Below are positions 1-55,224 of a DNA stretch of 64,000 bases, piece after piece. The DNA lies in NCBI GenBank assembly GCA_963697125.1, contig CAVOMW010000012.1, forward strand, positions 6,893 to 70,892, given 5' to 3'. The stretch is from an uncultured Actinomycetes bacterium. GTDB lineage: Bacteria; Actinomycetota; Acidimicrobiia; IMCC26256; DASPTH01. The stretch's first letter is position 1. Each line of letters begins with the position of its first letter. The translations under genes and the position numbers were made by a program. The notes under the pieces are model-generated. The model made no database searches. It was not told where the DNA came from and saw nothing but the letters and a program-made list of their open reading frames with translations.

Positions 1-483
1 GGCTGAGGAGCTCGAGGCGCTGCCGATGCCCCAGCGCCTGCTCCACGCGTGTTACGCCGCGGTGCTCGGCGACTGGCCGCCCCGGCTGATGTCGCTGCGC
101 GACGTCGCGGAGCTGGTGCTCGTCGAGCGGCCGAACCTGGTCGACGTGCTGCTGATGGCGCGCGCCTGGCAGTGCGAAGCCGTGGTGGCGCGCGCGCGTG
201 ACGACCGCTTGGGACGGCTCGCGCTGGTCGACCGCCCGCCGATCGTCGAGTGGGCGGACCGCTACGTGCCGTCGCGACGCGATCGGGTGCTCCTCGCCGC
301 GCACGAGGGGCCGGCCCGCGCGTTCACCCGGCACCTCGCGGCGCTCGCTCGTGTTGCCGAGCACGGGGGAGCGGGTCGCGTACCGATCGTGCCATCGCGT
401 TGCCGCAGACCGAGTATCTGAAGGCGAGAGGATTGACTCCGAGCGATCACGTCACCCGGGCCTGGCGCGCGGTGCGCGGGTGA
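1..483 (+). CDS. Nucleotidyltransferase family protein (NTP_transf_5-like), C-terminal part; 5' end outside window
   Basis: LLHACYAAVLGDWPPRLMSLRDVAEL resembles the C-terminal LLHxxxH...RLxWLxD region of this family; lies next to an HprK-like kinase and PqqD genes; frameshifted, stop at 481-483. Confidence 0.6.
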
Positions 484-489
484 GGGCCG

Positions 490-1339
490 ATGCAGTATCG
501 AGCGCTGAGCTACGACTTCGTGCTGGACGTGGAAGGACACGACGCGGTCGCGCACCATCTGGACGCACTGCTCGCGCCGATGCGCCACGTGGCGCCCGAT
601 CCCGTGCACTGGGTGATCCGTGAGAAGGATGACGACTCGAGCCGGCTGGGCGATCGTCGCCGACGACGACGTGATCGCCAGTGCCGGCGAGCGCGAGCCG
701 CCTGGTGTACGAGGTGGTGCACACGCTCAACGCCGTTGCGATCGAGCGATGGGACGGCGTCGTGTGCCATGCGGGTGGTGTGGCGCGCGACGGTGTCGGC
801 ATCGTGCTCCCCGCCGACATGGAGTCGGGGAAGTCGACGCTGACCGCGGGGTTGGTGCGCGCCGGCTTCGACTACCTCAGCGACGAGGGCATCGCATTCC
901 ACCCGGACACCAACCTGATCCAGCCCTACCCCAAGCCGCTCTCGCTCGACCCGGGCTCATGGTTCCTCTTCCCCGAGCTCGAACCCCGCGCCGATCTCGG
1001 CGACGACGACTACAAGCAGAACCAGTGGCAGGTGGCGCCCGACGCCATCCGCGAGGGTGCGGTCGCGGATCCGTGCCCCGCGGGCGTGCTCGTCTTCCCC
1101 CAATACGTCGAGGGTTCGACCACCGAGCTCGTGCCGATCGGGCGCGCCGAGGCGCTCATCGAGCTGGCGAAGAACACGTTCTCCTTCAACCAGCAGAGCC
1201 GCTTCGCGCTCGAGCAGCTCGCCGGGATCGTGCGCGTCGTCCCCAGCTACCGCCTCACCGTGGGCTCGCTCGCCGCCGCCGTGGCGACGATCGAGCAACT
1301 GGTGAGCTCGATGTCGAGGACGCGCGAGCCGATGCCTGA
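490..1339 (+). CDS. HprK-related P-loop kinase
   Basis: CHAGGVARDGVGIVLPADMESGKSTLTAGLVRAGFDYLSDE shows the HA...GKST...SDE signature, plus PYPKPLSL; frameshifts near 640-690. Confidence 0.8.
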
Positions 1340-1611
1340 CCAGATCGACGAACACGTCGCGCCGGCGCGCGGTAGCGAGGTGTTCACCGTGGAGCTCGAC
1401 GGCGAGGCAGTGTTGCTCGACGAGGCCGCCGATCGGCTTCACCTCCTCAACCACACCGGCCACCCTGCTCTGGCTGCTCTTCGACGGCTCCACGTCGCTC
1501 GGGGAGCTCGCCGACGAGCTCGCCATCGAGCTCGACCTCGACCGCGCGCAGATGCTCGACGACCTCGTGGCGATCACCGCGCACCTGGCCGACGAAGGAC
1601 TGCTGGCGTGA
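1332..1611 (+). CDS. PqqD-family / RiPP recognition element (RRE) protein 1
   Basis: VELDGEAVLLDEAADRLHLLNHT..LLWLLFDGSTSLGELADELA...LADEGLL is a classic PqqD pattern; one frameshift near 1460. Confidence 0.85.
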
Positions 1612-1886
1612 CCGACCGTCGCCGCGGTACCACCGCGTCGCCGCACGTGCTGTGGCGCTGCACGCTCGACACGGTGGTGCTGCTCCCGGTCTCGTCCGAC
1701 GACGAGCCGTTCGTGCTCAGCGGCAGCGGTCCCGAGCTCTGGGAGCTGCTCGCCGATCCCCGGACGCTCGACGACCTCGTCGCCGTGCTTGCGGCGGTCC
1801 ACGCGGTCGACCCGGCTACCGTGCGCGCGGACGTGGAGCCTATGCTCGAGCAGTTGGCGGCGCGGCGCGCGATCGAACTGCTCTGA
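1608..1886 (+). CDS. PqqD-family / RRE protein 2
   Basis: DTVVLLP...LSGSGPELWELLADPRTLDDLVAVLA...VRADVEPMLEQLAARRAI; GTGA start/stop overlap with RRE 1. Confidence 0.8.
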   Translation: MTDRRRGTTASPHVLWRCTLDTVVLLPVSSDDEPFVLSGSGPELWELLADPRTLDDLVAVLAAVHAVDPATVRADVEPMLEQLAARRAIELL

Positions 1887-1971
1887 CGAGCGGCCCGGAA
1901 GGTGCGCAACGCTCGGCACCCCCTGTCGATGTGGGCCAGGGCGACAGTTCGTGTTCAGGAGGTGTGGGTAG

Positions 1972-2508
1972 GTGGAGCGAGACGAATCAGCGGCGGCACG
2001 ACGTGGTGTCGACCGTCGCACCTTGATCAAGGGCGCGGCCGCGGCCGGGGTCGGGGTGTGGACCGCGCCGGTCATCCTCGACAGCCTCAGCTCGCCGGCC
2101 GCCGCCGGAAGCGTGACGGGGTGCCAGAGGATCCACCTCGAGGTGAACCCCTGCCCAATCCTCGGGAACTGCAATGCGCTCCCGACGTCGTCGAGCGCCT
2201 GGGCCACCAGCTGCGACAGCACGTTCCCGTCGCTCAGCACGGTGTGCGGCACAACCCTGGCCAACCTGCCGACGACGGTCGACACCCTCGCCAACCTGGG
2301 CATCACGCGCACCAGCTGCGACCTGTTGGACACGACGCTCACGTTGTCGAAGACGACCTGCAGCTGGGTTGCGGGCGTTGCGCACAGCACCGTCACTGGT
2401 TGCCATGCATCGAACGCCATCAACAACGCCACGGCCGGCAGCCGGACCATCTCGTTCCCGGTCGGCTTGCTGGTCGACGACTACTACCTGGTGATCACCT
2501 GCACCTGA
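1972..2508 (+). CDS. Cys/Ser/Thr-rich exported protein with Tat-like leader (candidate substrate of the RRE module)
   Basis: Intact 178-aa ORF after an AGGAGG-like RBS; DRRTLIK twin-arginine motif, WTAPVIL, SPAAA|GS cleavage-like site, 9 Cys in the mature part. Confidence 0.75.
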   Translation: MERDESAAARRGVDRRTLIKGAAAAGVGVWTAPVILDSLSSPAAAGSVTGCQRIHLEVNPCPILGNCNALPTSSSAWATSCDSTFPSLSTVCGTTLANLPTTVDTLANLGITRTSCDLLDTTLTLSKTTCSWVAGVAHSTVTGCHASNAINNATAGSRTISFPVGLLVDDYYLVITCT

Positions 2509-2512
2509 CGCA

Positions 2513-3085
2513 CTACGACTCCTCGGGCCAGAGGAGCTCGACCATCTCGTCGACGAGCTCGCTCACCTCGCGGGCCATGGTCTCGTGATCGGCGAAGCGG
2601 CTGCCGGTGGGGTCCTCGACGTCGTCGTCGCGTGATGACCCGAGGAGATCGACCGGTCGTCGCCCGGCGCCCACCAGCGCGAGCCGATCGAGCGGCGATG
2701 CATCGAGAGGCGCGGGGCCGAGGTCGGCGCCGCGGCGTACGAGCTCCTTCAAGGTGAACGCGCGTGAGAACGCGGTGGGGTCGAGGACGACCACCTCGCG
2801 GAGCTGCGCGCGCTCCATGGTCAGCACGAGGTCGGCAGCCTGCACGGCGTCGGCGACGGCACGCCGGCTGGCGTGTCCCGAGAGGTCGAGACCCAACCGT
2901 GCCGCGGCCACGACGGTCGGTTCGGTGGCCGCGACGCCTTCCATGGCCCGTACCCCCGCCGACTCCACGGACGTGGCGATCCGGCGTCGAGCCAATCGGT
3001 CGGCGAGGATCGCCGCAGCCAGCGGCGACCGGCACTGGTTGGCGCTGCACACGACGAGGACCCGGGTGATGTCGCCGTCGCTCAC
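2513..3085 (-). CDS. Low-molecular-weight protein-tyrosine phosphatase (Wzb-like)
   Basis: VLVVCSANQCRSP P-loop, ADLVLTME and DVEDP acid loop. Confidence 0.85.
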   Translation of the reverse strand: MSDGDITRVLVVCSANQCRSPLAAAILADRLARRRIATSVESAGVRAMEGVAATEPTVVAAARLGLDLSGHASRRAVADAVQAADLVLTMERAQLREVVVLDPTAFSRAFTLKELVRRGADLGPAPLDASPLDRLALVGAGRRPVDLLGSSRDDDVEDPTGSRFADHETMAREVSELVDEMVELLWPEES

Positions 3086-6058
3086 GTACCGGCCTCGAGC
3101 CGGTCCCAGAGGTCCCAGGTGCCGACATCGCGGACGAGGTGCACACGGAACCGCGTGGTCTTGGCCAGGTCGATCGACGCGGTCGCCCGGCGGGCGAACG
3201 GTCGCTCCATGCCCGGGGCCTTGTCGATCTTCCACCCGTTGGGGACGTCGACGGAGACGTGCAACCGGTCGGGGTTGATGGTGGGTTGCTGGCGCACGAC
3301 GAGGTCGTACCAGCCGTCGTGCAGCTTGACGTTGCCGCCGAGCTTGGCCGTCATCACCTTGGTCTGCTTCGAGAACACGTTCTCGATGAGGGAGTAGACG
3401 TTGCGGCCGCGTTCGCGTCCGGGCCCCACCTGCACGGGCTTGCCGTCCCAGGTCGCCTGACGGAACGGCGAGCGGCGAGTACAGCGGAGATGAACGAGCG
3501 GTTCTGGCCGGCCGTGAACCGTGGGTCGAACGGGCCGATCACGATCTGGGGCAGGCCGGCGTCGGGCGCAGTGTTGTCGAGGTCCACCGCCACGTCGGCC
3601 TGGGCGTCTGCCTCGGTGAGGTCGTCTTCCGGGTGGAGCATGACCCGGTAGTCGACGTCGCGCTTCAGGTAGTAGTCGATCTTGTTGGCGCCGACGTTCG
3701 ACGTGGTCAGCGCGAACGAGTCGGAGCGCACCGGCGGCATCGCCTGGGCGACGTCGAGCTGCTCGGCGAGGCGCTGCTCGTCGGGCCGCGTGAAGGCGAG
3801 GGTGAGGTGCCCAGCGTGTGCCGCGGCGCCGAGCACCTTGGCGATCTCGGCCGGGCTGCCCAGCGTGCCCGACGTCGCCTTGTCGACGGCCGCCTGCGCG
3901 ATGTTCCCGAGCAAGTCGACGCGGCTCGGGCGTGTCCTCGGGGTAGACCGCGTACTCGTCGCGCAGTGTCGACGTCGACGACGTTGTCGGCGTCGATCGG
4001 GGTGGCCCAGCCGTCGACGTTCACCGGGCCCGTGAGCGCCAGCAGCGCGGCGAGACCGGCAGGATCGACCGCCAGCGACGCCGTCGACGTTCGTCAACCC
4101 GGCGGGCGCGCCGCCTTGCGCGGCGAGTCCGGTGAGCGCCTGCGCCACGCTCGGGAAGTCGGGCGAGAGGTTCACGTTCTGCAGCGTGGTCTGGGGCGAG
4201 TACTGCTCGTAGCGACGCAGGTAGTCGAGCGGCGCGGCGACGGTGGGGTTGGGCAGGTCGCGCAACGCGTCGTTCCACACGTTGAGACGAGTGAGGTCGC
4301 CCACGTGGAGCTTCCCGTTCTCGGCGGTGATGAGGCCGTAGCTCGCCGATGAACCCGCCGGTGGCGCGGCGACTCGGCGTTGTTCTGCACGACGAGCAGG
4401 TAGGTGCGGTTCCCGTCGCCACCGAAGATCGCAGGCGCCAGCGTGGCGGCGGCGGCGGCGTGGCGGGCCTCACGCTCGGCCTGCGCGAGCTGTCCGTGCA
4501 CCTTGTCGATGGCGTCGCGACCGGCGGCGCCAGGTAGGGGTCGTCGGCGAGGTGTCGATGCCGATGCGAGCGCGCTCGAGAGCGCGGCGGAGCCCTGCTC
4601 GAGCGCCGGCGTGACCTTGGCCACCTCCTCGAGCGGGCAGGCGACCGTCGACCACCTCGAGCGCGTCGGGATCGACCGACGGTGGTGATCGACTCGCCCG
4701 AGCGGGCGAGATCGGTGCCGACCTCGGCGAGCGTGCGGGCGGCGCGCAGGTTGGACGCGACGCCGGGCACCGCGAGACCGGGGGTGAGCACGGCCGACTC
4801 GAGCCGGTCGCTTGGCCCGACCGAACGTGCGGGCGGCTTCGTCGAACGAGGCGCGGGCCGAGGTCGAGTCGCCGTCGCGGGCGGCGGCGAGGCCGCGGCT
4901 GGCGGCGTCCTTCCCGTCGAGCATCAGGTTGGCGGCGTCGTTCGCCACCAACGCGGTCGGGAGGATGGCGGCGACGAGCCCCACCACCACCACGGCGACG
5001 ACGACCCAGGCGCGGCGGCTCAACCCCGGTGCGGGGTCGCGCTCGAGCGTGCCCGGCCCGCCTCGAGCCGACGACGAGCAACACGACGCCGGCGCGCGGC
5101 GACGCCGAGCCACTCGGGCACGACCGCGCGGCCGGTGAAGACCGCGATCGCGGCCAGGAGCACCTGCCCGACAACGACGAGGGCCGCGACCTCGCCGGTG
5201 CTCCAGCCGAGGCGACCCAAGCGGTGCACCAGGTGGTCGGCTCGGTGCTCGAGCAGCCGACGGCGGTGGCGCAGCCGCGACAGGGTGACGAACGCGACGT
5301 CGAGGAGCAGGAAGCCGAGCACGATCGTGGGGGTGAGGATGCTCCGCCACGGACCCGCGACCGGCTGCACCGCGAGCGCGCCGACCGCCAGCGTCCACCC
5401 GACGACCAGGCGTCCGGCGCGGCCGACGAACAGCGACGCCGGTCGTACGTTGAACGCCAGGAAGGCCACGCACGCGGCGGCGAAGCCGATGAGCACGGTG
5501 GCGAGGCCGTCCTGGTGCGCGAACGCCGCGAGCGCGAAGAGGCCGGCCGACGCGGCGATGCCGATCCCGGGTGCGAGCCCGTCGAGCGTTGCCGATGCCG
5601 TCGGCGGCTCCGGATGACCGCGACGATCAGCACGAAGGCGAGGATGCACGTCGAGGGCGTCGACACCGGTCGGCCCGAACCGGGCGCCGGCGGCGACCGC
5701 GACGCCCGCGGCGACGAGGGTGGCGATCAGCGTGAGCCGGTTGCCCGTCGTCGACTGGTCTGCCACCAGGCCCACCCCGGCGAGCACCACCGCGCCGAAC
5801 GCGATCGTGACGCTGAGCGCGCCGAACGAGGGCGCGAAGACGAGCCCGACGAGCGGCCCGACCGCGAGGAGCGCGCCCGCGCGCCGGCGGAGCTGCGGCG
5901 CTGTCGGCTGGCCCTGCGCGGCCGGCTCGCCCAGCCCCGCGCGACGGGCCTCGCGACGGAGCGCCGCGCACACCGCGAGCACGACGAGCGTCGCGACCGA
6001 GAAGGCGAGCAGCCAGCGATTGGCCGTCGTCGACGGCCAACACGACCGCTGCGAGCAT
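3082..6058 (-). CDS. Probable fusion of a degenerate WecA/MraY-like (glycosyl transferase family 4) membrane domain (~5060-6058) with a DUF4012 domain (~3082-5050)
   Basis: DGLA...FLAFNVRPASLFVG...DHLVHRL (MraY-like); RTYLLVVQNNAE.RATGGFIG, NVNLSPDFP, NVGANKIDYYL (DUF4012); many frameshifts. Confidence 0.7.
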
Positions 6059-6101
6059 CCGGACGATGCTACGCGTGCGCCCGCCGCCCGAAAGGCGCGG
6101 G

Positions 6102-8040
6102 TCAGGCCCGTTCGGTCAGCGCGGTCGAGGCCGCTCGGCGCCGGCTCGCCGTCGAGCCAGTCGGGCGCGTGCGCGGGGCGGCGACCTCGAGCAGGGCCGC
6201 GCCGTGCGCCGACGTGGTCGTCGGCGACCGCGAGCGCCTCGAGGCGGGCGAGCGCGTCGGCGAGCACGGTCGGCGTCGAGGTGCACGGGCTCGATCGTGA
6301 GGATCGGCCGGCCCGGGACCGGCGCGCTGCTCCGCGGGCCCGATCACGGCCTCGCTCAGCTTCTCGCCCGGGCGCAGCCCGGTGATCTCGATCTCGATGT
6401 CGACGTGGGGGCGAAGCCCGCAGAGCCGGATCATGCGCTCGGCGAGCTCGTAGATGTTGACCTGCTCGCCCATCTCGAGCGCGAGGACGTGGTGGTCGCC
6501 GTCGGTGCGCCGCGGCCGCAGCAGCACGAGCCGCACCGCTTCGTCGGTGCTCATGAAGTAGCGGGTCATGCGCGGGTCGGTGACGGTGACCGGGCCGCCG
6601 GCGGCGATCTGGCGCTGGAACGTGGGGATCACGCTGCCGCGGCTGCCGAGCACGTTGCCGAAGCGCACCGAGCAGTAGCCGTCGTCGCGTCGGCGCGCGT
6701 CGAGCACGATCTGCTCCGCGACCCACTTCGACGCGCCCATCACGCTCGTGGGCGCGGCCGCCTTGTCGGTGGAGATGCACACGAGGTGCGTGACGTCGTA
6801 GCGTCGCGCACGCGTCGACGACGTTGAGCGGTGCCGAGCACGTTGGTGCGGATCGCCTCGCACGGGTGCTCCTCGAGGATCGGCACGTGCTTGTGCGCGG
6901 CGGCGTGGAACACGACCTCGGGGCGCACCGGCGCGAAGACGGCGTCGACGACCGACGCGTCGCGGATGTCGCCCAGCGCGATCTCGGGCTCGGCACGCCC
7001 GGCAGCGTCTGCAGCGCGTCGTGCAGGTGGGTCTCGTCGTGGTCGAGGAGCACGAGCGCGCCGGCTCGAACTCGGCGACCTGCCGGGCGATCTCGGAGCC
7101 GATCCAACCGCCGCCGCCGGTGACGAGCACCCGCCGCCCGTGCAGCAGCTCGCGGACCGGGCTCGAGGTCGATGGTCGACCTGCTCGCGCCCGAGGAGGT
7201 CCTCGATGTCGAGGTCGCGCACGTCGCGCAGGCGGGGCATGCCGTGGACCCACGACGACGACGTCGCGGAGCACCCGCACCGGGATCGCTGGCCGGCTCG
7301 GCCGGTCGGCGACGTGCTGCACCACGCTCGCGCGGCGCGGACGGGCATCGCGAGCAGGATCTGGTGGACGTCGTGCTCGTCGATGATCTCGGCGAGGTCG
7401 TCGAGCGTGCCGGCGATGCGGCACCCCGTGGATGGAGCGGCCCCGCAGCGCCGCGGTCGTCGTCGACGACGACCACCGGCACGAGGCCGAGGCTCGGGTG
7501 ATGCTGCATCTCGCGGAGCGCGGCGGCGCCGTTGGTGCCCGCGCCGACGACGGCGATGCGAACGCCGGCGCCGGGGTACGTCGGAGCGCCGGAACGCGAA
7601 CAGGCGCGACTGGAAGCGCACCAGGCCGAAGAGGAACGTGGCCAGGATCGGTCCGGCGATCGAGCACGCGTGAGCGGCACGCGCTCGCTCGCCCCAGAGA
7701 ACGCGACGATCAGCACGGCGCCGGTGCAGGCGCCGGCCGAGAGCAGGCGGACGGCCTCGTCGATGCTGGCGTGGCGCCAGGTGCGGCCGTAGCAGCCGCA
7801 GGCCCACATGGCGACCACGCTCACGACGCACGCCACCGGCAGGAAGAGCTGGAAGCTGGTCCCAGTAGTCGGGGGGACGTAGAAGTCGAAGCGGAGGTCG
7901 AAGAGGACGAGGTACGTGAACGCAGCGAGGACGAGGTCGATGATGACGAGGGGGTAGTCGCCGCGGACTCTGGCTGCGCCGAGCGAGCCGAGGCGTGGAC
8001 CGGAGCGACGCTTCGTGCCGGGGTCGTGCGCGTTCGCCAC
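6102..8040 (-). CDS. Polysaccharide biosynthesis nucleoside-diphosphate-sugar epimerase/dehydratase (CapD/PglF-like)
   Basis: VLVTGGGGWIGSE, FHAAAHKHVP, ISTDKA..PTSVMGASK, VRFGNVLGSRGSVIP, RMTRYFM, GLRPGEKL; N-terminal TM segments. Confidence 0.9.
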
Positions 8041-8246
8041 CTGTTGCCCACCCGCTTCCGGTCTGCCTCCCGGCCGATCGGTCGCCTCCCCGCTAGGCCT
8101 GGAGGCGCGTAACGCACCTGCCAGGCGTCACGAACATGGCTCCCGATCAGGCCGTTACTACGGAGAGTGATCATCGCACTCGCTGGTGCTCGTTGTCGAG
8201 GGCGAGCTTCGTCGACGCCACGGTACTTGACTTGAGTCACAGCTGA

Positions 8247-9444
8247 TCAGGTCGAGCGGATGCCCTTGCGAGCGGCGACCTCGCGGTAGGTCTCGAGCAC
8301 GGTCGTCGACCACCCGGCGCTCGTCGAAGTGCGTGCGACGCGCTCGCTGGCGGCATGCCGCCCCGAGCGCCTGGCGCTGCTCGGCGGTGATCGCCCGAGT
8401 GCGCGCAACGCCGCGGGCGAGTGCCGCGGGTCCCGGACCGGGACGAGCGAGGCCGGTGACGCCCGGCTCGACGACCTCGCGGCAGCCGCGGACGTCGGTG
8501 CCACGACGCGGGAGCCCCATCGCCGCCGCCTCCATCGCGGCCGCGGGGAAAGCCCTCGCGGTGGGAGGCGAGCACGAACACGTCCATGGCGGCGTAGAGC
8601 GCGTCGACGTCGTCGCGGTGCCCGAGGAACACGCACCCCGCGGCGCCGGGCCGCGTCGAGCACGGCGCGGGCAGGGCAGTCGGGCTTGTCGGGGTCGGTC
8701 GCCGCCGACGACGACGAGGCGCGTAGCGGTCGGCGGGCAGCCCGGCGATCGCCTCGAACAGCTCGGGGTAGCCCTTCTCCGCGACCAGCCGCCCGACCGA
8801 CCCGACCACGATCGTCGTCGTCGGTCGACCCGAACTCGCGCGCGGATCGCGCGCCGTTCGTCGGCGCGAGACGCGCGGCGGTCGAAGCGGGCGAGGTCGA
8901 CGCCGTTGCCGAGCAGCCGGGCGTGACGGGTGAGGTGGAGCCGCTGCATCAGCGCGAGGTCTTCGGGGTTCTGGAACAGCTCCGCGTCGGAGCACCGCGC
9001 CGCGATCGCCTTCGAGCGCGTAGACGACGGCGCGCTTGCGCGACGGGTCGTCTTCGGTGCGCGTAGAGGCCGTGCACCGTGTTCACGACGATCGGGACGC
9101 GCGCGAGCCGACCGACGACGCGCCCGTACACGCCCGGGCTTGGGGTTGTGGGTGTGGAGCACGTCGATGCGCTCGCGCCGCAGGATCCGCCAGAGCTCGC
9201 GCGCGGCGCGGAGGTCGGCCGCGGGTCCATCGAGCGCGTCGACGAGCGCGAGCGCGATGTGGCGGATGCCCTCGGCTTCGAGCTCGGCGACCCACGGTCC
9301 CGGGCGCGCTGATGCCGATCGCGCGTGCCGCCGCGCGTCGCGCACGGCGCGCAGCTGCGCGAGCACGAGGAACCGCAGGCTCATGTCGACGGTCGTGAGG
9401 TGCGCGACGGTGAACCGGTCGCCTCGCGTGCGCCCGGTTGCCAC
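8247..9444 (-). CDS. Glycosyltransferase family 4
   Basis: VAHLTTVDMSL, HTHNPKPG, VNTVHG, GRLVAEKGY, DVFVLASHREGF..AAMEAAAMG. Confidence 0.85.
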
Positions 9445-9462
9445 GAGTGCGATGCTACGGCG

Positions 9463-10330
9463 ATGGGCGAGCGTGCTCCGCGACGACGGCGTTCTGGGCT
9501 CGCGTTCGTGGTGCGACCGTCGGGGTCGGCGTCGAGCGTCGTGCTCGCGGTCGGCGCGGTGGATGGCGATCGCGGCGCCGCATCGTCGCCGTCGTCGGCG
9601 TCGTTGCTCGCCCTCGCGAGCCGCAGCCCGGTCTGAGCATCGCGTGGTCGCGCTCGGCGTGGTGCTGGTCGCGGTGGCTCGGCCTGGTCGAGGAACACGC
9701 GGGCGGGCACGGTACCCAGGTCGTGGTCGCTCGTTGCCGGGGCGCTGCTCGTGCGCGGCGCCGCTCGCCGAGCGGCTCGGCCGCTGTGGATGCGGGTGGT
9801 CGGTGTTCGTCGCGGTCGTCGTCGGCGCGCCCGTTGGCGTCCGTCGTCGACCGCGCGGGCGCCGCGGTGGATGCCTGTGTTGTTCCTGCGTCAGCACGAT
9901 CGGGATCTACGTGTGCGTGCCCGACACCGAGGTGCCCAAGGTGCTGCTCGGTGCGGTCGGCGCCGGTGGCGTTGCTCGCGCTCGACCGACGCGCGCGGTC
10001 GAGCGCGTCGACCGGGCGTTCGTGGCCGCTCGTGGTCGCCGCCGCGGTGGTCGGGGGCGTCGGACGCCCCGGCGCCGTCGTCGGCGGGATCGCGTGCCTC
10101 GGGGTGGTGCTGCTCGCTCCCGCTCGTGCGGTGGCGAGCCCGCGTCGCCCGCCGAAGTGGTCGTGCTCGTCGACGCACGGTGCTGCGTCGTGCTCTACGT
10201 GGCGCGCGTCGGCCGGGTTCCGCGACTCGGCGTGGACGCGCGCTTCTTGTGCGTGCCCGCGTTCGTGATCGCGTGGCACGCGTGCTGCTTCGTGACGCCC
10301 GGCTCGCGATGCGGCGATCGCGGTCAGTGA
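9463..10330 (+). CDS. Hypothetical integral membrane protein
   Basis: Hydrophobic segments across shifting frames (IGIYVCVPDTEVPKVLLGAV; AVVGGIACLGVVLL); heavily frameshifted. Confidence 0.45.
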
Positions 10331-11465
10331 CGCGTCGTGCGCTGAGGCGCTGGTACGTCGCTTCGATGCGCGCGACCGCGGCGCGCGATTCGAGAATCGG
10401 TCGCCGGTCGGCCGCGCGCCGTCGACGAGACGCGCGTGCACCGCGGGGTCGAGCGCGCGCTGGATCGCGTCGGCGAGGCGCACTCGGCGAGCCGGGGGTC
10501 ACGAGGATCCCGTTCTCGCCGTCGCTCGACGACCTCGGGGAGGCCGCCGACCGCGGGCGCGACCACGGGGACGCCGAGCGTCAGCGCCTCCATGACCGTG
10601 ACCGGCAGGCCCTCGTGGTGCGACGCGAGCACGAAGAGGTCGGCGGCCGCGATGAGCCGGGTCGTGTCGTCGCGGTAGCCGAGCAGGCGGAACCGGTCGC
10701 CGAGCCCGCTCGCGCGGTGCAGGCGCGGCGATCTCGTCCTCGAACTGGCCCTGGCCCGCGGTGACGAAGCGACCGGGCACGCCCGCGTCGACGACCATGT
10801 CGCGCGGCCTCGATGAGCCCCGGGTAGTTCTTGCCCGGCGCGGAGGTTGGCGACGGTCACCGCGAGCGACTCGCCGGGCTCGACGCCGAGCTCGCGCCGG
10901 ATCGCGTCGCGCTCGGCGAGGTCGGCGCGCACCGCGTCGACGTCGACGCCGTGCACGAGCGACCTCGACCCGGTCGCGGTCGCGACGGGAGACCGAGTCG
11001 CGCACGTCGTCGGACACCGCGAACACCGCGTCGTTCAGTCCGAACGTGACCTGGTTCGACGCACGCGGGTCTCGGTGCGGTACGACGGCCAGCGGTTGTG
11101 CTCGGTGTAGACGAACGCCGGACGCTGTGCGCGCGGCATCGCGCGCACCACGACGCCGCGCGACCGACGCGACCAGCGGTGAGTGCGCGTGGACCACGTC
11201 GTAGCGTTCGCGGCGCAGCAGCGACGCGCAGGCGCGTCACCCAGCGCGGGTCGAGCTCGGAGCGCACGCCGAGGCAGTGGGTGCGCACGCCGAGCGCCTC
11301 GAGCTCGGGCACGAGGTGCTGCTTCCAGTCGAGGACGTAGGCGACCTCGTACGTGAACGCGGTCGCGGTCGCCGGCGCGGGCGTGCTCGACCAGCAGCCG
11401 TTCCGCGCCGCCCGGCCCGAGCCCCTTGATGAGCCAGAGGACGCGCACCGGTGCCGGTCGGTCAC
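10324..11465 (-). CDS. Glycosyltransferase family 4
   Basis: VRVLWLIKGLGPGGAERLLV, VHAHSP, VYTEHN, DLFVLASHHEGLPVTVMEAL. Confidence 0.85.
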
Positions 11466-11750
11466 AAGTCGCTCGTGCATCCCTGCGGACGGCGTGTCGA
11501 GCGCGTTCACCGCGTCGAAGGTGGGCACGCCCGACGCGAGGATCGCGTCGACCGGCCACGCCGGGTTGCGCACGAGCACGACCACGAGGTCGTAGGGATC
11601 GAGCGCGCCGGGATCGATCGGCACCGCCTTGTGCTCGCGCCCCGCGAGCTCGAGCGACGCGACCAGCGGATCGGCGTCGTCGTCCATCATCGCCTCGAGC
11701 AGCACGCGGGCGGTCTCGTAGAGCACTCCGGCGTCACCCCGCCGCAATCT
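11462..11750 (-). pseudogene. C-terminal (UDP-binding) fragment of a UDP-glucose/GDP-mannose dehydrogenase family protein
   Basis: DPLVASLEL...YDLVVVLV...TFDAVNAL resembles the C-terminal domain; the N-terminal domains are absent and the fragment abuts a poly-C tract. Confidence 0.5.
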
Positions 11751-11769
11751 CACTGTTCCCCTGCGCAAA

Positions 11770-11788
11770 CCCCCCCCCCCCCCCCCCC
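11770..11788. repeat. C19 homopolymer tract
   Basis: 19 consecutive C residues, unique in the window. Confidence 0.95.
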
Positions 11789-11865
11789 GATCCGCTCGAT
11801 CAGGCCGGGAGCAACGGTCACGACGGGAAACGGTAGTGGACAGTGGCGCATATCCTTGTCTGTCG

Positions 11866-13589
11866 ATGGAGATCGTCACGCAGCCAGTCAGCCCCGACGA
11901 CATCGACCTCTCGTTCGTCGCGCGACTCGTGCCCGACCTCGAGGTGATGACGGTCGGCGACGAGCAGATCGTGGTCAGCGACGACGCCGGCGTGATGGCC
12001 CTCAACCGACCGCGGGCGCTCATCTTCGGGTTCCTCGACGGGGAAGCGACCCTGGCCGAGCTCACCGACGACTTCACCGAGGTGCTCGGCGTGGACCGTG
12101 ACGTCGTCGAGCGCGACGTGCTCCAGTTCGCTCGCCACCTCGGCGCCAACGGCCTGCTGGAGGGCGTGGCGTGGCCGCCCCCGGAGATGCCCGAAGGGTG
12201 GGACGAGGGTGAGCCGTGGGAGCCGCCGGCACCGCTCGAGGTCGGCGACGAGATCGACGACTTCACCCTCACCGATCTCGACGGCGAGCAGCGTTCGCTG
12301 TCCGACTTCCGTGGCCGCCGCACGCTCCTCGTGAACTGGAGCCCGGGCTGCGGGTTCTGCGTGACGATCGCCAGCGAGCTCGCGGCGCTCGACCCCGTCC
12401 TGACCGAACAGGACGTGTCGTTGGTGTTCGTCACCTTGGGCGACGCCGAGTCGAACCGTGCGCTCAACGAGCAGCACGGTCTGGGCGCGCCGATGCTGCT
12501 CCGCGACGGCACCGAGACCGACCCCTTCAACGGGACCGGGACGCCTGCAGCTCTGCTGCTCGACGCCGAAGGGACCCTGGCCGAGGCGATGTCGGTGGGC
12601 GCCAACCAGGTGCCGGTGCCTGGCGCGGGATCTGGCCGGACTCGACCCCGCCACTCCCTACGGTGTCGCGGCGGTCGACGAGTCGGCACCCGACGACGAG
12701 CTCGACGGCGACGAGGTGCGCGGGACCTATCTCCCGGCGCCGGGGCGATGTGCGGCCCCGGCGGAGGAGGCGGCGCGTCCGAACAGCACGCAGTGGGAGG
12801 GCACGCGCGTCTACGCGCTCGGCGAGTACCACGTCGGCGTGCAGCATGACGCCGCCGAGACCGCCGCTGTCCTCGACCGGCTCTTCCCCGACGCCCGGGT
12901 CAACGACCGGCGCTGTGCCCGACAACTACTCGGTCGCGTTCGGGCGGACTCCCACCACGAAGAGCGCCGGTTCGTCGCGGTCGCTGAAGTTGCTCGTGCA
13001 CGGCGGCCGGCAACTCGTGCGGTCGCGATCAGGGGCCGGGTGCTCGCCACGCTGCTCCAGTACCTGTCGGCCGATCTCGAGCCCGCGGATCCCAGCCTCA
13101 CCGAGGTCTACGCCGAGCGCGCTACCATGCGCGATGGCGAAGCGTTGCTCCTCCCGGGTGGGCTCTCCGAGCACGTGAAGGTGCTGCAGCCGCGGTTGGC
13201 GAAGCGTGGATTGACGCTGGTGGACACGCCACGGGTGCTGCTCGATCTCGACGCTCGTGAGCTGGTGGTGCCCGAGCCGGTCGTCGCGTTCGATCATGCC
13301 GTGATCGAGGAGCTCGACCGCGACGTGAAGCTCGGCAACGAGCTGCCCTGGGTACGGCCCGGCCGGTACCCGCTGCGTGCGTGGTTCCTCGCCCGCAGTC
13401 CGGACGACGTGGGCCCGCTGAGCCCCGCGGTGGCAGTGACGAGCACGCTCTCGATGCTCTCCACCGACGACGACGTGCGGTACGCGTGTCGAGCGCCTGA
13501 CCGACCTGTTCTCGGCAGTCGACGCGTACGGAACCTGGTACGAGAGCGCCGACGAGCTCGCCACCCAGGTTGACGCGACCCGGTCCTGA
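11866..13589 (+). CDS. Three-domain protein: PqqD/RRE + thioredoxin-fold (TlpA/AhpC-TSA, CGFC) + degenerate HprK-like domain
   Basis: ALN...IFGFLDGEATLAELTDDF...DVLQFARHLGANGLL (RRE); DFTLTDLDGEQRSLSDFRGRRTLLVNWSPGCGFC...GTPAALLLDAEG (TlpA); RDGEALLLPG...RLAKRGL (kinase-like, no GKST); C-terminal part frameshifted. Confidence 0.75.
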
Positions 13590-13608
13590 TTCGCGCGGGT
13601 CCTGACGC

Positions 13609-14724
13609 TCAACCGGTCGTTGCGATGATGCCCATCACGAGCAGCTGACGTCGCACCACGGCGCGGTTCGAGTGCGCGGCGCGCGGCGTCGAGATCGGCG
13701 GGATCGAGCGCGGCGGGCGTGCGGCGCACTGCGTCGGCCAGCGACGCGGCATCGCCGGCGCGGTAGCGCGGGCCGAGGTGGAACCGCACGACCACGTCGG
13801 CCGCAGCTGCGTCGTCGCAGCACACGACGGGCTTCCCCGCGCCGATCGCGTCCATCAGGGTGCCCGACTCGTTGCGGTAGTCGGGCGTGAAGCTGAGCAC
13901 GACGAGGTCGGCCGCGGCGAAGAGGCGGTCGCGTGTCGTGTCGTCGACGACCCCGGGAAACGTGACCAGTCTCGGGCCGGGCTCGAGCCCGTCGGCCACC
14001 GGGCCGCCGACGACGAGCGTCCAGTCGTCGAGGGTGGCGAAGGCCGCGAGCACGACGTCGCGCCGCTTGAGCGTCGGCTCCCCGAACAACAGGGCGAGCT
14101 TGCCGTTCGGCGGGAGGGCCAGTTGTCCGCGCGTGGTCGGGAACCGCGTCGACGGCGCGGACGCCGGCAACCGGCGCGACCACGGGATCCAGGGACGCCG
14201 CCGCCTCGACCCACGTCGCCCGCAGCCGCTCGTGCGCGACCACGATGCGCACCGCGCCGCCGGCGCGTCGCCGCTGCCGTTCCCGCTGTCGAACGAACGC
14301 GTCGACGAGACGTGATCTCGGAAACTCGGTCGACGACCGGAATTGGTTCACCAACCACCGCGCCCGGAGCGGAGCGAGTGCGGCGAGGAGCGCCGGCATC
14401 TCGTCCCACGCGAGGACGACGACGATGTCGGGGGCCGGCACCATCCGTCGCGCGCACGCTCGGATCTCGATCGCTTGGACGCTCGTGAGCAACCAGGGGT
14501 CGCGGAAGCGACGCCGGAGCTGCCACGCGCGGGAGCGCCACCGCTTGACCGAGAACGGCGGCGCGGGACGTTGCGCGTCGCGTGACCAACCGAGGCTCGT
14601 GAGCAGTTCGACGCGGTAGCCGAGCTGCGCGTACGCGGCGGCGAGCTCCGCGCACCGGTTCGGGAAGTGCCCGTTCGGAGAGTGGCGCGAGCGACTCGAC
14701 GATCAGGACGCTGCGCGCGGACCT
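13609..14724 (-). CDS. Glycosyltransferase (GT-B fold, GT4-like)
   Basis: RDRLFAAADLVVLSF...SGTLMDAIGAGKPVV; N-terminal VLIVE...GHF. Confidence 0.7.
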
Positions 14725-46273: not shown

Positions 46274-47117
46274 TCAGACGCCGATGTTGTCGAGCAGGCG
46301 GGTGTCGCCGAGACCGATCGACGCGAGGAGGCGCACCTCGCCCGTCAACTCGTCGAGCGGGGTCATGGTCGGGCCGTCGACCACCGCGAAGTACTGGATC
46401 GCGGCGGCACCGTCGACGGTGTCGGTGAAGACCTGCTCGACCGCGGCCGCGCTGGTCGTGCCCGCGAGCGCGGCGTCGCGCGCGCGCGCAGAGCGCCGCG
46501 GTACAGCACGGGTGCGACGGCGCGTTGCTCGGGCGTGAGCTGCGAGTTGCGGCTCGAGACGGCGACGCCGTCGGCTTCGCGGATCGTCGGCACGCCGACG
46601 ACCTCGACCGGGTACTCGAGGTCCTCGGCCAGGCGGACGAACATCACGAGCTGCTGCCAGTCCTTCTCGCCGAAGTAGTTGCGGCACGGACCGAACATGT
46701 TCCAGAGCTTGCACATCGCCAGTGCGATGAGGTCGAGGTGCGCGGGGTCCTCGAGCTGGGCGAACCTTGCGAGAACGACGGCAGACGTCACTGTGGTCAT
46801 GGGCGTCGCGCGGGAACAGCACCTCAGCGCGGGGGTGCGAACAGGATGTCGCAACCCGCTTCCTCGGCGAGCGGCCAGTCGTGACCGGCGTCGCGTTCGT
46901 AAGCGAAGGTCGATCCGGTGTGCCACGCCGACAGGTCGGCGGGCGCGCCGCCCCAGTACATCGCGGTGACGTCGTTCTCCTCGGCCGAGCGTCGGATCAG
47001 CGACTGGTGGCCCGCGTGCATGCCGCCGCTGGTGCCCACCATGCCGATGCGCTTGCCCGCGTTCCGTTGCGGGTCGAGCACCGCGCGCAGCTCGCTCACG
47101 GTGCGGTAGAGCTCCAT
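46274..47117 (-). CDS. Divergent pantoate-beta-alanine ligase (PanC) homologue
   Basis: MHAGH, YFGEKDWQQ, PTIREADGVAVSSRN, TRLLDN; pantoate-site motifs are altered. Confidence 0.8.
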
Positions 47118-51770: not shown

Positions 51771-54042
51771 ATGCCGGGTGCACTCGAGGGACTGCGGGTC
51801 GTCGACCTCACGACGGGGCTGGCGGGGCCGATCGCGACGATGACGCTGAGCGACCACGGCGCCGACGTGGTGAAGGTCGAGCCGGCGAGCGGTGATCCGC
51901 AACGCGCGGTACGTGGGCTCGGTGGTGACCAACCGCGGGAAGCGCAGCGTGGTGCTCGACCTCGACGACGCAGGCGACCGTGAGCAGCTGCTCGCGCTGA
52001 TCGACACCGCCGACGTGCTGGTCGAGAGCTTCGCACCCGGACACCTCGCCGCGCGCGGGCTCGACTTCGATCGCGTCGCCGCCGACCGGCCGTCGCTGAT
52101 CTACTGCTCGCTCACCGGGTACCCGCGCACGACCGACGCGGCCGATCGGCCCGCCATCGATCTGCTGGTGCAGGCGCGCTCGGGCATGCAGTACGAGCAG
52201 CCCGGCTTTCGCGACGGCCCGATCTTCCTGCACGCGCCGTTGCCGAGCATCGCCGCGTCGTACCTCACCGTCGAGGGGATCCTCGCCGCGCTCTACGCGC
52301 GCGAGCTCACCGGTCGGGGCAGTGGGTGGAGACGTCGCTGTACCAGGGCGTGCTCTCGTTCACCACGCAGCTGTGGCAGGACCCCGAGCACCGGGTCGAG
52401 CCCTGGTTCGAGATCGGGTTCGAGCCGCGGCCGAGCATCTACGAGTGCGCCGACGGGCTGTGGGTGCACTCGATGCACTTCGCCGGTGGTCGGGGCAAGG
52501 ACCGCAGCATCGTGTGGGAGATCCTGGGCATCGACGCGCCCGACCTCGAATGGAACCCGACCGGCGGCCAGGCGTTCGACGACGTCATCCGCGACGCGAT
52601 CGGCAAGATGAAGCGCCAGGACCTGCTCGACCAGTTCTGGGCCAACGAGATCGCGATCGCGCCGGTGCGCCACGCGCACGAGGCGCTCGAGGACGAGCAG
52701 GTGATCAACAACGGGATGTCGGTGGTGGTCGACGATCCCGTGCACGGCCCGGTGCGCCAGGCCGGCATCTCGTTCCGGCTGCACGGTGCGCCGACACCGG
52801 CGGTGCAGGGTCCGCAACCCGCGGTCGGCCAGCACACCGACGAGGTGCTCGCGGCGACGGCGAAGGAGCCGGCGCGCGGCACGCGCGCCGCGACCGGCGA
52901 AGCGGCCGGTCACGCACGCGCTCGAGGGCATCAAGATCCTCGACCTCGGCAACTTCCTCGCCGGCCCGTTCGGACCGATGCTGCTCGGCGATCTCGGCGC
53001 GACCGTCTACAAGCTCGAGTCACCCCAGGGTGACCAGATGCGCCCGGTCACGCAGCCGTTCAACGGCTGTCAACGAGGGAAGCTCGACGTCGTCGTCGAC
53101 CTCAAGCAGCCCGAAGGCGTCGAGATCGCGCACCGGCTCATGCGCGAGGTCGACGTCGTGCACCACAACATGCGACCCGGCGTCGCCGAACGACTGGGCG
53201 TCGACTACGAGACCGCCAAGCGGCTCAACCCGAACGTCATCTACTGCCACACGACCATGTGGGGCAGCGACGGGCCGCGCGCGACGTGGCCGGGCTTCGA
53301 CCAACTCGCGCAGTCGTCGTGCGGGCTCGAGCAGGAGCTCGGCGGTGAGGGCAACGGCCCGAACTGGTACCGCTTCGGGATGTGCGACCAGGCGTGCGCG
53401 GTGCAGTCCGCACTCGCGGTGCTCATGGCGCTCTACTGGCGCGAGCGCACCGGCGAGGGTCAGCTCGTCGACACGTCGATCGTGAACGGTGGCGTGCAGC
53501 TGAACACCGACGCGTGGATCGGTCCCGACGGCTGGTCGGAACGCCCGCGCACGGATGCAGACCAGACCGGGTTCGGTCCGCTCTACCGCCTCTACGAGGC
53601 GAGCGACGGTTGGCTCGCGATCGCGTGTCTCGGCGACACGCACCGGCGCGCGCTCGCGACCGTGGTGCCCGGCCTCGATGCCCACTCGCCGGACGTCGGG
53701 ACGCTGGAGGCGTTCTTCGCCGCGCGCACCGCGCAGGAGTCGTTCGACCTGCTCGACGGCGCGGGCGTCCCGGTGGAGCTGGCGCCCGAGGACGCGGGCC
53801 GCACCTGGTTCACCCAACCCGACCTCGTCGCCGCGGGACTCGTCGCCGACTACGAGCACCCGACCTACGGGCGCTTCCGTCAGTTCGGTGAGCTCGTGCA
53901 CCTGTCCGACACGCCGGGGCGCATCGCCGGCCCGCCGCCGCTGCTCGGCCAGCACTCACGCGAGGTGCTCGCCGACCTCGGCTACTCCGACGCCGAGATC
54001 CAGACCCTCCGCGACCGCGGCGTCACCCTCTGGCCCGACTGA
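51771..54042 (+). CDS. CoA-transferase family III (CaiB/BaiF) with two tandem domains
   Basis: [12 protein letters not shown]...[14 protein letters not shown]; second copy [25 protein letters not shown]. Confidence 0.9.
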
Positions 54043-54124: not shown

Positions 54125-55223
54125 GTGGCGGTGCTCTCCGACGAGGCGATCGTCCGCGCGCGGATGGTCGGTCTCGGAGTGTGGGCGTCACCACCCTGCG
54201 CGCCGGGCGCCGCCGTCGGTCGTCTCGTGGCGATGCAGGCGCAGGAACACCGGTACGCACGCTGGTCGGTCGGGCAACGATCGGCGACGCGAGCGTCCGA
54301 CGTCGATGCGGCCTTCGACGCCGGCGAGCTCCTCCGTACCCACGTCCTCCGTCCGACGTGGCATTTCACGACCCCGGCCGATCTGCGGTGGCTGCTCGCG
54401 CTCACCGGTCCGATCCTCGAGCGTCGCAACGCGCGCCGCGACCAGGAGCTCGAGCTCGACGCTCGGACCCGACGCCGCGCCACCGACCTGATCGCTGATG
54501 CCGTCGGCACCGGTCCCTTGACGCGGCGCGAACTCGCGGAGGTGCTCGAGCAGCGCGGGATCGGGACCGACGGACAACGCATCGCGCACCTCTTGTTCCA
54601 TGCCGAGCTGCACGCGGCGGTGTGCAGCGGCCCGATGCGCGGCAAGGTGCACACGTACGCCGCGTTCGACACGCGGGTGCCGCCAGGTGTTGCCCACGAA
54701 GGGGAAGCCGCGGTCGCGGAGCTGGCGCGGCGTTACTTCGCAACCCGCGGTCCCGCGACCCTGCGCGACTTCGCGTGGTGGTCCGGGCTCCCGATGGCCG
54801 ACGCGGTGCGGGGCTCTCCGCCGTGCAGACGGAGCTGACGTCGTTCGCGTGCGACGACCGGACGTACTGGTTCACCGACGTCGCGAAACGGGTCAAGAGT
54901 CCGCGGGTTGATCTCGTGCAGTGCTACGACGAGACGATCATCTCCTACACGGAGTCGCGTGACGTCCTGCAGACGCCCGACGTCGCGTTCCCCGTCCCGC
55001 GTAGCATCGACGGCTTCGTGCACGTGCTGCTGTGCGACGGTCGCCTCCTCGGGCACTGGCGCGTGGCCGGTGCTGGCGCCGGCGCAGAGTGGAGACGCGC
55101 GTGGCGCGTGCACTCGACGACCGTGAGCAGACCGCGCTCGACGCCGCCGTGGACCGGTACGAGACGTTTCGGCGCCCGCTCAACCACCCATATGAGGACT
55201 CGAGGGGCGCCAAAACAGAGTGA
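54125..55223 (+). CDS. AlkZ/YcaQ-family (HTH_42) DNA glycosylase
   Basis: AMQAQ (QxQ), LRTHVLRPTWH, GPATLRDFAWWSGL, YDE. Confidence 0.85.
55166..55216. repeat. Second REP-like palindromic element
   Basis: GTTTCGGCGCCC...GGGCGCCAAAAC, 51 nt long like the copy at 54054. Confidence 0.65.
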
Positions 55224-55224
55224 G

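Follow-up and report, generated by a model that had tools for sequence, protein, structure and literature searches.

In a 64,000-nucleotide stretch of DNA from an uncultured Actinomycetes bacterium (hereafter the window: contig CAVOMW010000012.1 of GCA_963697125.1, positions 6,893-70,892 of the forward strand), the plus-strand open reading frame (ORF) 1972..2508 is a gene for a cysteine-rich protein of 178 amino acids, the first 45 residues of which are a leader with a strictly kept arrangement of a twin-arginine pair, a W-x-x-P motif and an A-x-A end. From comparative sequence analysis it is probable that this leader has a double use, serving in the cytoplasm for docking to recognition elements (RREs) of the kind known from peptides that are made on ribosomes and modified after translation (RiPPs), and also for export through twin-arginine translocation (Tat). 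Such a dual leader had been proposed in an earlier note made from the sequence of the window, and the comparison with related proteins and genomes supports the idea. In the window and in related loci the leader gene is a close neighbour of genes for an HprK-like kinase and PqqD-type RREs, and the known system that comes nearest is that of the linear polyphosphorylated peptides (LPP) of Bacillota (Popov et al., Nat Commun 2026, PMC13381572).

The target gene starts with GTG at 1972 and ends with a TGA stop at 2506-2508, and it was taken as coding because the G+C content of its codon positions follows the pattern 0.53/0.60/0.89 within a window of 71% G+C. What the earlier note had read from it, namely the frame itself, the RR pair, W-T-A-P-V-I, nine cysteines, richness in Ser and Thr, a duplicated TLANL and a terminal ITCT, is all found in the translation: Ser and Thr make up 28.6% of the mature part, TLANL stands at residues 95 and 105, and the cysteines (51, 61, 67, 81, 92, 116, 130, 144 and 177) without exception lie past residue 45.

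A word-indexed search with the target returned 72 proteins at E <= 0.01, four of which are full-length relatives (59-96% identity), while most others are alike only in the first ~45 residues (55-86%). The exhaustive search of 50%-identity representatives gave 248 clusters at E <= 0.001, mostly via the leader. A scan of species genomes yielded 15 loci (L001 to L015), of which 14 remained after removal of L015; these belong to ten metagenome-assembled genomes (MAGs) of Acidimicrobiia, Microthrixaceae or 'Actinomycetes'. A hidden Markov model (HMM) of the leader, built from 179 members, detected 23 copies in the 14 loci. The window has a single copy, and no paralogues accompany it. All these copies score 49-73 bits, and nothing else exceeds 24 bits. 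The earlier note had predicted numerous paralogues that keep the leader and differ in their cores, and this is the picture that emerged from the related genomes and clusters. By sequence, Acidimicrobiia-type bacteria thus possess a large family, as yet without a name, that is defined by this leader.

Conservation is concentrated in this leader. Among the 158 members whose leader is complete and is followed by 60 residues or more, mean pairwise identity amounts to 73% over 33 leader positions versus 20% over the mature parts, the latter taken from 400 random pairs. Since W, P and P-A-A-A were selection criteria of this set, their 100% conservation within it is circular, and the counts on 182 and 177 members are the fair ones. 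The earlier note had let its proposal depend on the conservation of WxxP; W-[TSA]-A-P is present in 182 of the 192 retrieved relatives. Among these 182 members, W stands exactly 16 residues ahead of the residue after P-A-A-A in 176, and the distance from RR to W is exactly 15 residues in 167. The register is gapless, consisting of RR, 13 residues, W, two residues, P and 12 residues ending in P-A-A-A. In the 72-sequence alignment W30, A32 and P33 are invariant, and R15, R16, I19, K20 and I35 are each conserved to at least 90%. Just past the predicted cut, 169 of 177 members have a hydroxyl residue at position +2, Thr (88) being as common as Ser (81), and +1 and +3 vary freely; the exceptions include cargo of the L006 type. 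The same leader also precedes unrelated cargo, such as Gly_rich_2 (2/72 members) and DUF4082 (1/72).

The median core length of the family is 138 amino acids. Cysteine counts are even in 140 of the 158 members (median 8, minimum 1), which fits an oxidised, extracytoplasmic protein, and the product of the target gene is probably a precursor from which a secreted protein rich in disulfides arises.

The consensus of the Tat n-region is given as (S/T)-R-R-x-F-L-K (PMC3712460), which residues 14-20 of the target, D-R-R-T-L-I-K, fit. Residues 21-29 form an Ala/Gly-rich, weakly hydrophobic h-region, and P-A-A-A offers Ala at -3 and -1, an A-x-A site whose position is fixed in 176 of the 182 members. 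A fixed RR, an Ala/Gly-rich h-region of low hydrophobicity, a length of 45 residues and an A-x-A end together make up a textbook Tat signal. Taken alone, the assignment of the leader as a Tat signal is very likely correct.

A GMC oxidoreductase in L014 (1968-3554) carries an ordinary twin-arginine signal without the W..P..PAAA extension; this is one case. The rejected locus L015, on a contig of a Bradyrhizobium MAG, was a false positive: its ORF 1050-2372 has the signal peptide of a periplasmic binding protein, which matches positions 1-25 of the leader HMM only (23.7 bits) and has no W..P motif. Because it came in by a generic twin-arginine n- and h-region, the pattern scan of species genomes is unspecific without the W..P part.

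The second line of evidence is the gene neighbourhood. An HprK-like kinase is encoded in eight loci (L001, L003, L006, L007, L008, L010, L013 and L014), and in all eight a leader gene lies at most 430 bp away, which corresponds to eight of the ten genomes with the family. In seven of them both genes are on the same strand with a gap of 0-164 bp; in L007 they are divergent and 424 bp apart. The two genomes without a kinase match have PqqD-domain proteins 44 bp (L004) and 1268 bp (L002) from the leader gene. A leader family occurring mostly apart from the RRE/kinase module, the outcome which the earlier note had regarded as fatal to its idea, was thus not what these genomes presented. Overall, a kinase or RRE gene lies within 10 kb of 17 of the 23 leader copies and within 1.3 kb of 14. 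Gene order differs, being leader-kinase-RRE-RRE in L003, L008, L013 and L014, leader-kinase in L001, kinase-leader-RRE-RRE in L010 and kinase-RRE-RRE-leader in the window; L006 shows two leader genes followed by the kinase, and in L014 three leader genes surround the module. Both types of discrete RRE are found in L003, L006, L008, L010, L013 and L014.

The kinase and the three RREs on which the earlier note had relied are present in the window (490-1331; 1332-1611; 1608-1886; 11836-12849), and the target gene follows the kinase, RRE-a and RRE-b at a distance of 85 bp (Table 1). The main body of the kinase matched TIGR04352 (E 1.1e-30, 106.8 bits), as did the kinases of the window and the loci together (E 1e-22 to 4e-32, 79-112 bits). 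The window kinase is 37-63% identical to the kinases of seven loci, with G50, K51 and T53 invariant and the P-loop G-K-[ST]-T kept.

Matches of the RRE-a profile were PqqD (8e-8), TfuB1 (7e-6), TbiB1 (1e-5), LppB 9X8Z (2e-5; 2.2e-5) and PbaB1 9X90 (8e-4), the identity of the entries being confirmed by the data statement of the LPP paper, and the intact orthologue in L010 matched PqqD at E 4e-12. A nearly invariant (at least 90%) Asn and Asp of RRE-a align with N33 and D70 of LppB, which matter for leader binding there (PMC13381572). RRE-b matched TbiB1 at E 2.7e-4 as a single sequence and at 2e-10 as a profile, and LppB 9X8Z at 2.5e-4 as a profile; it keeps the Asp and has Ser, Ala or Gly at the Asn position, comparable to the Gly of the W-binding PbaB1. 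The stop of RRE-a and the GTG start of RRE-b overlap as GTGA (1608-1611), a sign of translational coupling, and the RRE genes of L010 and L006 abut likewise. A scan of 1-3400 found no plus-strand terminator-like site between RRE-b and the target and no promoter-like site, which is uninformative at 71% G+C. Prediction of a complex of RRE-a, RRE-b and leader residues 1-56 gave 0.39, 0.25 and 0.41 in three runs, with controls of 0.00 and 0.00 when the partner and 0.21 when chain 1 was replaced; this stays below the required margin of 0.20 and carries weight neither way.

The gene at the edge of the window belongs to the same set. The product of 2..421 shares 46-67% identity (tblastn) with the 3' ends of ORFs in L010, L006, L003, L014 and L008, and NTP_transf_5 (PF14907) matched the ORFs of L006, L008, L010 and L014, with E values between 7e-20 and 2e-27; the 139-residue piece itself had no Pfam match, nor had the short L003 piece that was scanned. 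Orthologues of the PqqD-thioredoxin fusion, which lacks a signal peptide, are encoded at L002:12036-13808, L014:11899-13581 (minus strand) and L003 ~12998-13741 (minus strand). The fusion could guide thiol-disulfide chemistry on cysteine-rich precursors before Tat export.

Table 1. Features of the target gene, its leader and the genes around it, in window coordinates unless a locus is named.
Feature	Position	Strand	Remark
PF14907-type nucleotidyltransferase, C-terminal part	2..421	+	gene begins before the window
HprK-like kinase, N-terminal piece	490..651	+	different frame from remainder of gene; 42% identity to N-terminus of L010 kinase (tblastn, E 7e-7)
HprK-related kinase, main body	681..1331	+	P-loop S-G-K-S-T
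RRE-a, discrete PqqD-type RRE	1332..1611	+	two frames, one extra G near 1456
RRE-b, second discrete PqqD-type RRE	1608..1886	+	PqqD E 1.2e-12
Shine-Dalgarno sequence AGGAGG	1957-1962	+	ends nine bases ahead of GTG 1972
Leader, residues 1-45	1972..2106	+	n-region with RR, Ala/Gly-rich h-region, W-T-A-P-V-I, c-region ending P-A-A-A
RR, residues 15-16	2014-2019	+	
W-T-A-P-V-I, residues 30-35	2059-2076	+	
P-A-A-A, residues 42-45	2095-2106	+	followed by G-S
Ser47, +2 after predicted cut	2110..2112	+	putative phosphorylation site
Mature Cys-rich, beta-rich domain, residues 46-178, with stop codon	2107..2508	+	
Low-molecular-weight phosphotyrosine phosphatase (LMW-PTP), Wzb-like	2513..3235	-	LMWPc E 7.2e-19; convergent with target; polysaccharide locus
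PqqD + thioredoxin-like (AhpC/TSA, ResA-like) fusion	11836..12849	+	C-G-F-C motif; PqqD E 1.8e-7, AhpC-TSA E 9e-14, ResA-like E 3.7e-9
Polytopic membrane protein of ~450 amino acids	L006:15870-17183; L008:1880-3268; L010:12825-14177; L014:5850-7178 (-); L003:6659-7633 (-); L001:8629-9797 (split)		

From these observations the following course of events is proposed. In the cytoplasm, one or both of the discrete RREs would grip W(-16)-x-x-P(-13)-x-I(-11) and hand the precursor to the HprK-like kinase, which would phosphorylate a hydroxyl residue. The likeliest acceptor would be the Ser or Thr at +2, a site assignment which, on analysis of the conservation pattern, comes close to being probable without quite reaching it. 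The PF14907 nucleotidyltransferase may extend the phosphate, as in pseudomycoidin, and in some loci the RRE-thioredoxin fusion may handle the cysteines. While bound, the RRE would mask part of the signal peptide in the manner of Tat proofreading chaperones; the twin-arginine n-region and the Ala/Gly-rich h-region would then route the finished protein through Tat, and housekeeping signal peptidase I would cut after P-A-A-A. With a probable Tat signal and an A-x-A site in the leader, Tat and signal peptidase I would replace the MsbA-like pump and the SipW-like peptidase of the LPP systems. No S24 or S26 peptidase was detected among 107 ORFs of seven loci (E <= 1e-3), 108 ORFs of eight loci (E <= 1e-6) and 63 ORFs of the window (seven at E <= 0.01, 56 at E <= 1e-5), all from G+C-based ORF calling, and an MsbA-like ABC protein (ABC_membrane and ABC_tran) was present in one of the eight kinase loci (L001, 4425-6197, 3.7 kb upstream) and absent from the window.

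Several points weigh against a dual leader. The Pfam model TAT_signal (PF10518), which is only 21 positions long, gave 16.2 bits on the window protein, under its cut-off of 22.7; it matched 40 of the 72 members at E <= 1, the best at 1e-4, and none reached the cut-off. The kinases are relatives and not members of TIGR04352, since they fall short of its equivalog cut-off of 200 bits, and the search with the kinase against the PDB found no relative at E <= 1. In the window both the kinase and RRE-a are frame-shifted, by sequencing error or by real decay; CapD-like, pantoate ligase, CoA-transferase and AlkZ-like genes are split as well (6105-6782, 46366-47117, 52326-54039 and 54125-55275), and because many window genes are split between frames the assembly was taken as indel-prone, so that apparent pseudogenes here are not to be trusted. 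The total of nine cysteines in the window protein is odd. The comparison covers about ten genomes, a small sample, and in L001 the leader gene adjoins the kinase with no RRE found. Six of the 23 leader copies (L005, L009, three in L011, and L012) have neither kinase nor RRE in the flanking DNA examined; L005 and L012 are short on one side, and the genomes of L009 and L011 carry the module elsewhere (in L014 and L010). A leader subfamily lies not in the polysaccharide locus but beside genes of the Pup-proteasome ATPase (L005:9719-10543, L007:9965-10906, and L011:9965-10549 and 9184-9780, minus strand). The linkage of kinase and RRE genes to the leader is explained in part by the fact that all of them lie in one conserved polysaccharide locus. 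Finally, LppK is described as refusing Thr at its site (PMC13381572), while Thr is as frequent as Ser at +2 in this family.

Some of these points would suit an ordinary Tat-secreted family, the signal of which was conserved by recent expansion or by exchange of 5' ends, and whose linkage to the module reflects a shared locus, the module itself acting on another substrate or in the polysaccharide pathway. The module is always found within a polysaccharide locus, leader copies without it in the flanking DNA occur, and small LPXTG/LAXTG proteins nearby are possible alternative substrates. We nevertheless regard this explanation as unlikely. A leader of 73% identity on cargo of 20% is the reverse of the usual signal-peptide pattern, and the one leader precedes unrelated cargo domains; Ser or Thr is kept at +2 between the variable +1 and +3. 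Likewise, the register of W-16 and P-13 is that of the RRE-bound LppA (PMC13381572), the leader gene stays within 430 bp of the kinase in every kinase locus despite the differing gene order, and the GMC oxidoreductase of L014 provides one case of an ordinary Tat signal that does without the extension.

Less probable still is an arrangement in which the RREs do bind the leader and the main cytoplasmic event is thiol chemistry, the PqqD-thioredoxin fusion making, keeping or reshuffling disulfides for Tat and the kinase having another role. A fusion of PqqD with a ResA-like CxxC domain does exist in the window, L002, L003 and L014, in L002 it is the sole RRE protein near the leader gene, and the high and mostly even cysteine numbers of the cores would be in line with it. 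However, the fusion was found in only four of 15 places (the window and three of 14 loci) and in none of them as the immediate neighbour of the leader gene, some proteins with the leader contain few cysteines, and the Ser/Thr at +2 and the tight adjacency of the kinase would be left without explanation. Such chemistry may also be an added step and not a true rival to the dual leader.

That the leader is solely of RiPP type, RR being part of enzyme recognition, with export by an ABC pump or Sec and cleavage by a dedicated, unrecognised protease, seems more doubtful again. The sub-threshold TAT_signal scores, the ABC protein upstream in L001 and several conserved ORFs without family, such as the ~450-residue polytopic membrane protein beside the transferase, could be brought forward for it; but RR stands at a fixed distance and is followed by two hydrophobic residues and K, the h-region, length and A-x-A end agree with a Tat signal, and the ABC exporter was seen in only that one of the eight kinase loci. 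The reading as a lipoprotein was rejected: V-T-G-C at residues 48-51 fits the loose lipobox pattern, in which case Cys51 would be acylated after cleavage by signal peptidase II, and many members have G-C soon after the leader, but the first cysteine changes its position (of 177 members, 40 have it at +3, 23 at +4, 17 at +5 and 35 at +6, and some beyond), ~15 residues including an Asp separate it from the hydrophobic region, and Cys51 pairs in conservation with the C-terminal C177 (at least 90%), as expected for a disulfide, all of which makes acylation hardly credible.

The dual leader therefore remains the preferred reading, and a more far-reaching version can be formulated, for which expectations should be low: the PqqD-type RREs would be Tat proofreading chaperones which hold a portable 45-residue leader until kinase and nucleotidyltransferase have set a phospho- or phosphoglycosyl mark at +2; then the folded, disulfide-set protein would be released to Tat, and the mark at its new N-terminus could tie the protein to, or prime, the capsule or cell-wall polysaccharide of the locus. 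If this were true, Acidimicrobiia would own a general leader cassette that sends any cargo domain through an RRE/kinase/Tat pathway, and the orphan HprK/PqqD/PF14907 cassettes that other phyla carry in their polysaccharide loci would likewise serve to modify proteins.

The mature domain consists almost entirely of strands in an AlphaFold2 model of the target (mean predicted local distance difference test score, pLDDT, 76; residue 71 onward mostly 76-96, the last 100 residues mostly above 83), in which the leader is disordered (pLDDT below 50). Neither Pfam nor NCBIfam contained a family matching the target at E <= 0.01. A PDB search with its mature fold brought up no relative at E <= 0.001, with 5od4 coming closest (E 0.045, TM-score 0.29), a search of the ESM Atlas with residues 46-178 gave no usable match, and leader residues 22-51 matched nothing meaningful among PDB sequences. 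Conserved cysteines of the Cys-rich cargo are 51, 67, 81 and 130, plus 92 and 177; judged by alignment, this cargo type is one very divergent family. P0074, a protein of 858 amino acids, contains 16 stretches matching target residues 52-69, the first strand region of the mature domain, and may be a repeat protein built from a segment of this kind.

The rest of the window from 1 to 14,300 is a polysaccharide locus with LMW-PTP, DUF4012-like, WecA-like GT4, CapD-like and GT1 enzymes, and the module as a whole always lies inside such a locus, among Wzz/BY-kinase, LMW-PTP, DUF4012, CapD-like and glycosyltransferase genes. L001, L006, L010 and L013 have the same LMW-PTP neighbour, and L008 has it on the opposite strand. 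Small LPXTG/LAXTG-anchored proteins are encoded near LMW-PTP or DUF4012 genes at L001:12098-12367 (minus strand), L013:12576-12899 (minus strand) and L014:18155-18661. Just upstream of the nucleotidyltransferase gene stands the gene for the ~450-residue polytopic membrane protein, which neither Pfam nor NCBIfam assigns to a family; L001, in which a transferase was not detected, has it directly ahead of the leader gene. A role in the same pathway, as polymerase, ligase or transferase, is conceivable for it.

L007 encodes a second HprK-related kinase (12565-13518, minus strand), which is divergent beside two further leader genes. In L004 (9968-14466) the leader gene is followed after 26 bp by a protein of 416 amino acids with an N-terminal PqqD domain and a remainder without assigned family; further on, the opposite strand encodes a Hanks-type Ser/Thr kinase, and after it stands another protein that begins with a PqqD domain (380 amino acids). 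L004 may represent a different enzyme set using the same leader.

If the dual leader holds true, phosphorylation systems of the LPP type would be found in Actinomycetota as well as Bacillota and would act on folded cores of protein size as well as on short peptides, a RiPP pathway would hand export and leader removal to housekeeping machinery, and the biology of RREs would be linked to the chaperoning of Tat signal peptides. The leader family offers a concrete candidate substrate for the orphan cassette of HprK-like kinase, PqqD and PF14907 proteins in polysaccharide loci, and a short, highly conserved and cargo-independent leader would be a handle for engineering secreted, site-specifically modified proteins.

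Among known systems, NCBIfam has models of an HPr-rel-A system: TIGR04352 (HprK-related kinase A) is the best family of the kinase, and two RREs match TIGR04353 (PqqD family chaperone) weakly (E ~1e-4), but all scores are far under the curated cut-offs, and no substrate family is attached to these models in the library output. General export signals on RiPP precursors are known from bufferins and oxazolins, which have Sec signals (PMC12452194, PMC11626156) and were called highly unusual for it (PMC12452194), and from lipoprotein-pathway RiPPs (PMC13056109). There, as here, a general export signal replaces the leader or is fused with it, and some precursors are protein-sized and rich in cysteine; unlike here, the signals are of the Sec or lipoprotein type and the enzymes are MNIO enzymes with DUF2063-type partners, and in the cited passages no Tat signal and no PqqD-type RRE is described for any of them. 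The survey of PMC12452194, in its portion drawn on here, makes no mention of twin-arginine or Tat signals, and the literature retrieved on Tat signals together with RiPPs or RREs contained no RiPP-type leader fused to a Tat signal, while for LPP systems PMC13381572 was the one paper retrieved.

From the side of Tat, redox enzyme maturation proteins (REMPs) such as TorD, DmsD and NapD bind twin-arginine signal peptides until their cargo is mature (PMC3712460, PMC3316669, PMC8428690). Common to both would be a small cytoplasmic binder on a Tat signal peptide and the overlap of transport and chaperone functions in one signal peptide; REMPs differ in having other folds and in serving cofactor insertion into redox enzymes, whereas here a putative PqqD-type winged-helix binder would be combined with phosphorylation.

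In lasso peptide systems a PqqD-type B1 protein binds a WxxP leader (PMC8498205), as an RRE would do here; the earlier note had seen this likeness in the motif. A lasso system was nevertheless rejected, since the ORFs scanned in the window and loci included neither an Asn-synthetase-like macrolactam cyclase nor a transglutaminase-like B2 protease and the core is a folded domain of 133 amino acids. In the related case of paeninodin and pseudomycoidin an HPr-kinase homologue modifies the linear precursor and a PF14907-type nucleotidyltransferase adds a hexose to the phosphate (PMC8498205). Lasso kinases target a C-terminal Ser (PMC8498205), whereas the family shows no constant residue at the C-terminus (in 182 members T 34, S 25, P 23, A 21, C 20, G 16, with others in the remainder), so that phosphorylation of a C-terminal Ser in the style of paeninodin was rejected together with any role of ITCT, an ending that is present in the target and is not a feature of the family.

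The LPP clusters, as described in the cited passages of PMC13381572, are called restricted to Bacillota, sit in capsule loci and combine genes for an RRE with those for an HprK-like kinase and for an NTP transferase (components LppA/LppB/LppK/LppN/LppS/LppD), with one to three precursors of 35-200 amino acids which have a conserved N-terminus and variable C-termini. A discrete RRE binds the [Y/W]xxP leader there, for which Y-16 and P-13 of LppA are needed; Ser3 of LppA is polyphosphorylated by the HprK-like kinase, and cleavage after T-1 by a signal-peptidase-I-like enzyme is favoured by phosphorylation (PMC13381572). The present system differs from it in its occurrence in Acidimicrobiia-type Actinomycetota, in a leader that is ~29 residues longer at the N-terminus, where it resembles Tat n- and h-regions, and that has W in place of Y and ends in P-A-A-A instead of F-E-T, in the lack of a detected SipW-like leader peptidase (archaeal-type signal peptidase I) and the rarity of an MsbA-like pump (one of eight kinase loci), in two RRE paralogues with an additional RRE-thioredoxin fusion in some loci, and in folded Cys-rich cores (median 138 amino acids) instead of short peptides. 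Compared with the LPP motif YxxPxVLxHQxIxFETxxS, the register is the same and residues -11 and -10 are branched aliphatic here, while the aromatic residue is W and the remaining motif differs. What both have in common is the trio of discrete RRE, HprK-like kinase and PF14907 transferase, the setting in a polysaccharide locus, one to three precursor genes whose products keep the N-terminus and vary strongly towards the C-terminus, a leader of the form [Y/W]xxPx[V/I] whose aromatic residue stands at -16 and whose Pro stands at -13 relative to a cut, predicted here, of signal-peptidase type, and a hydroxyl residue just past this cut, Ser3 in LppA and Ser or Thr at +2 in the family of the window.

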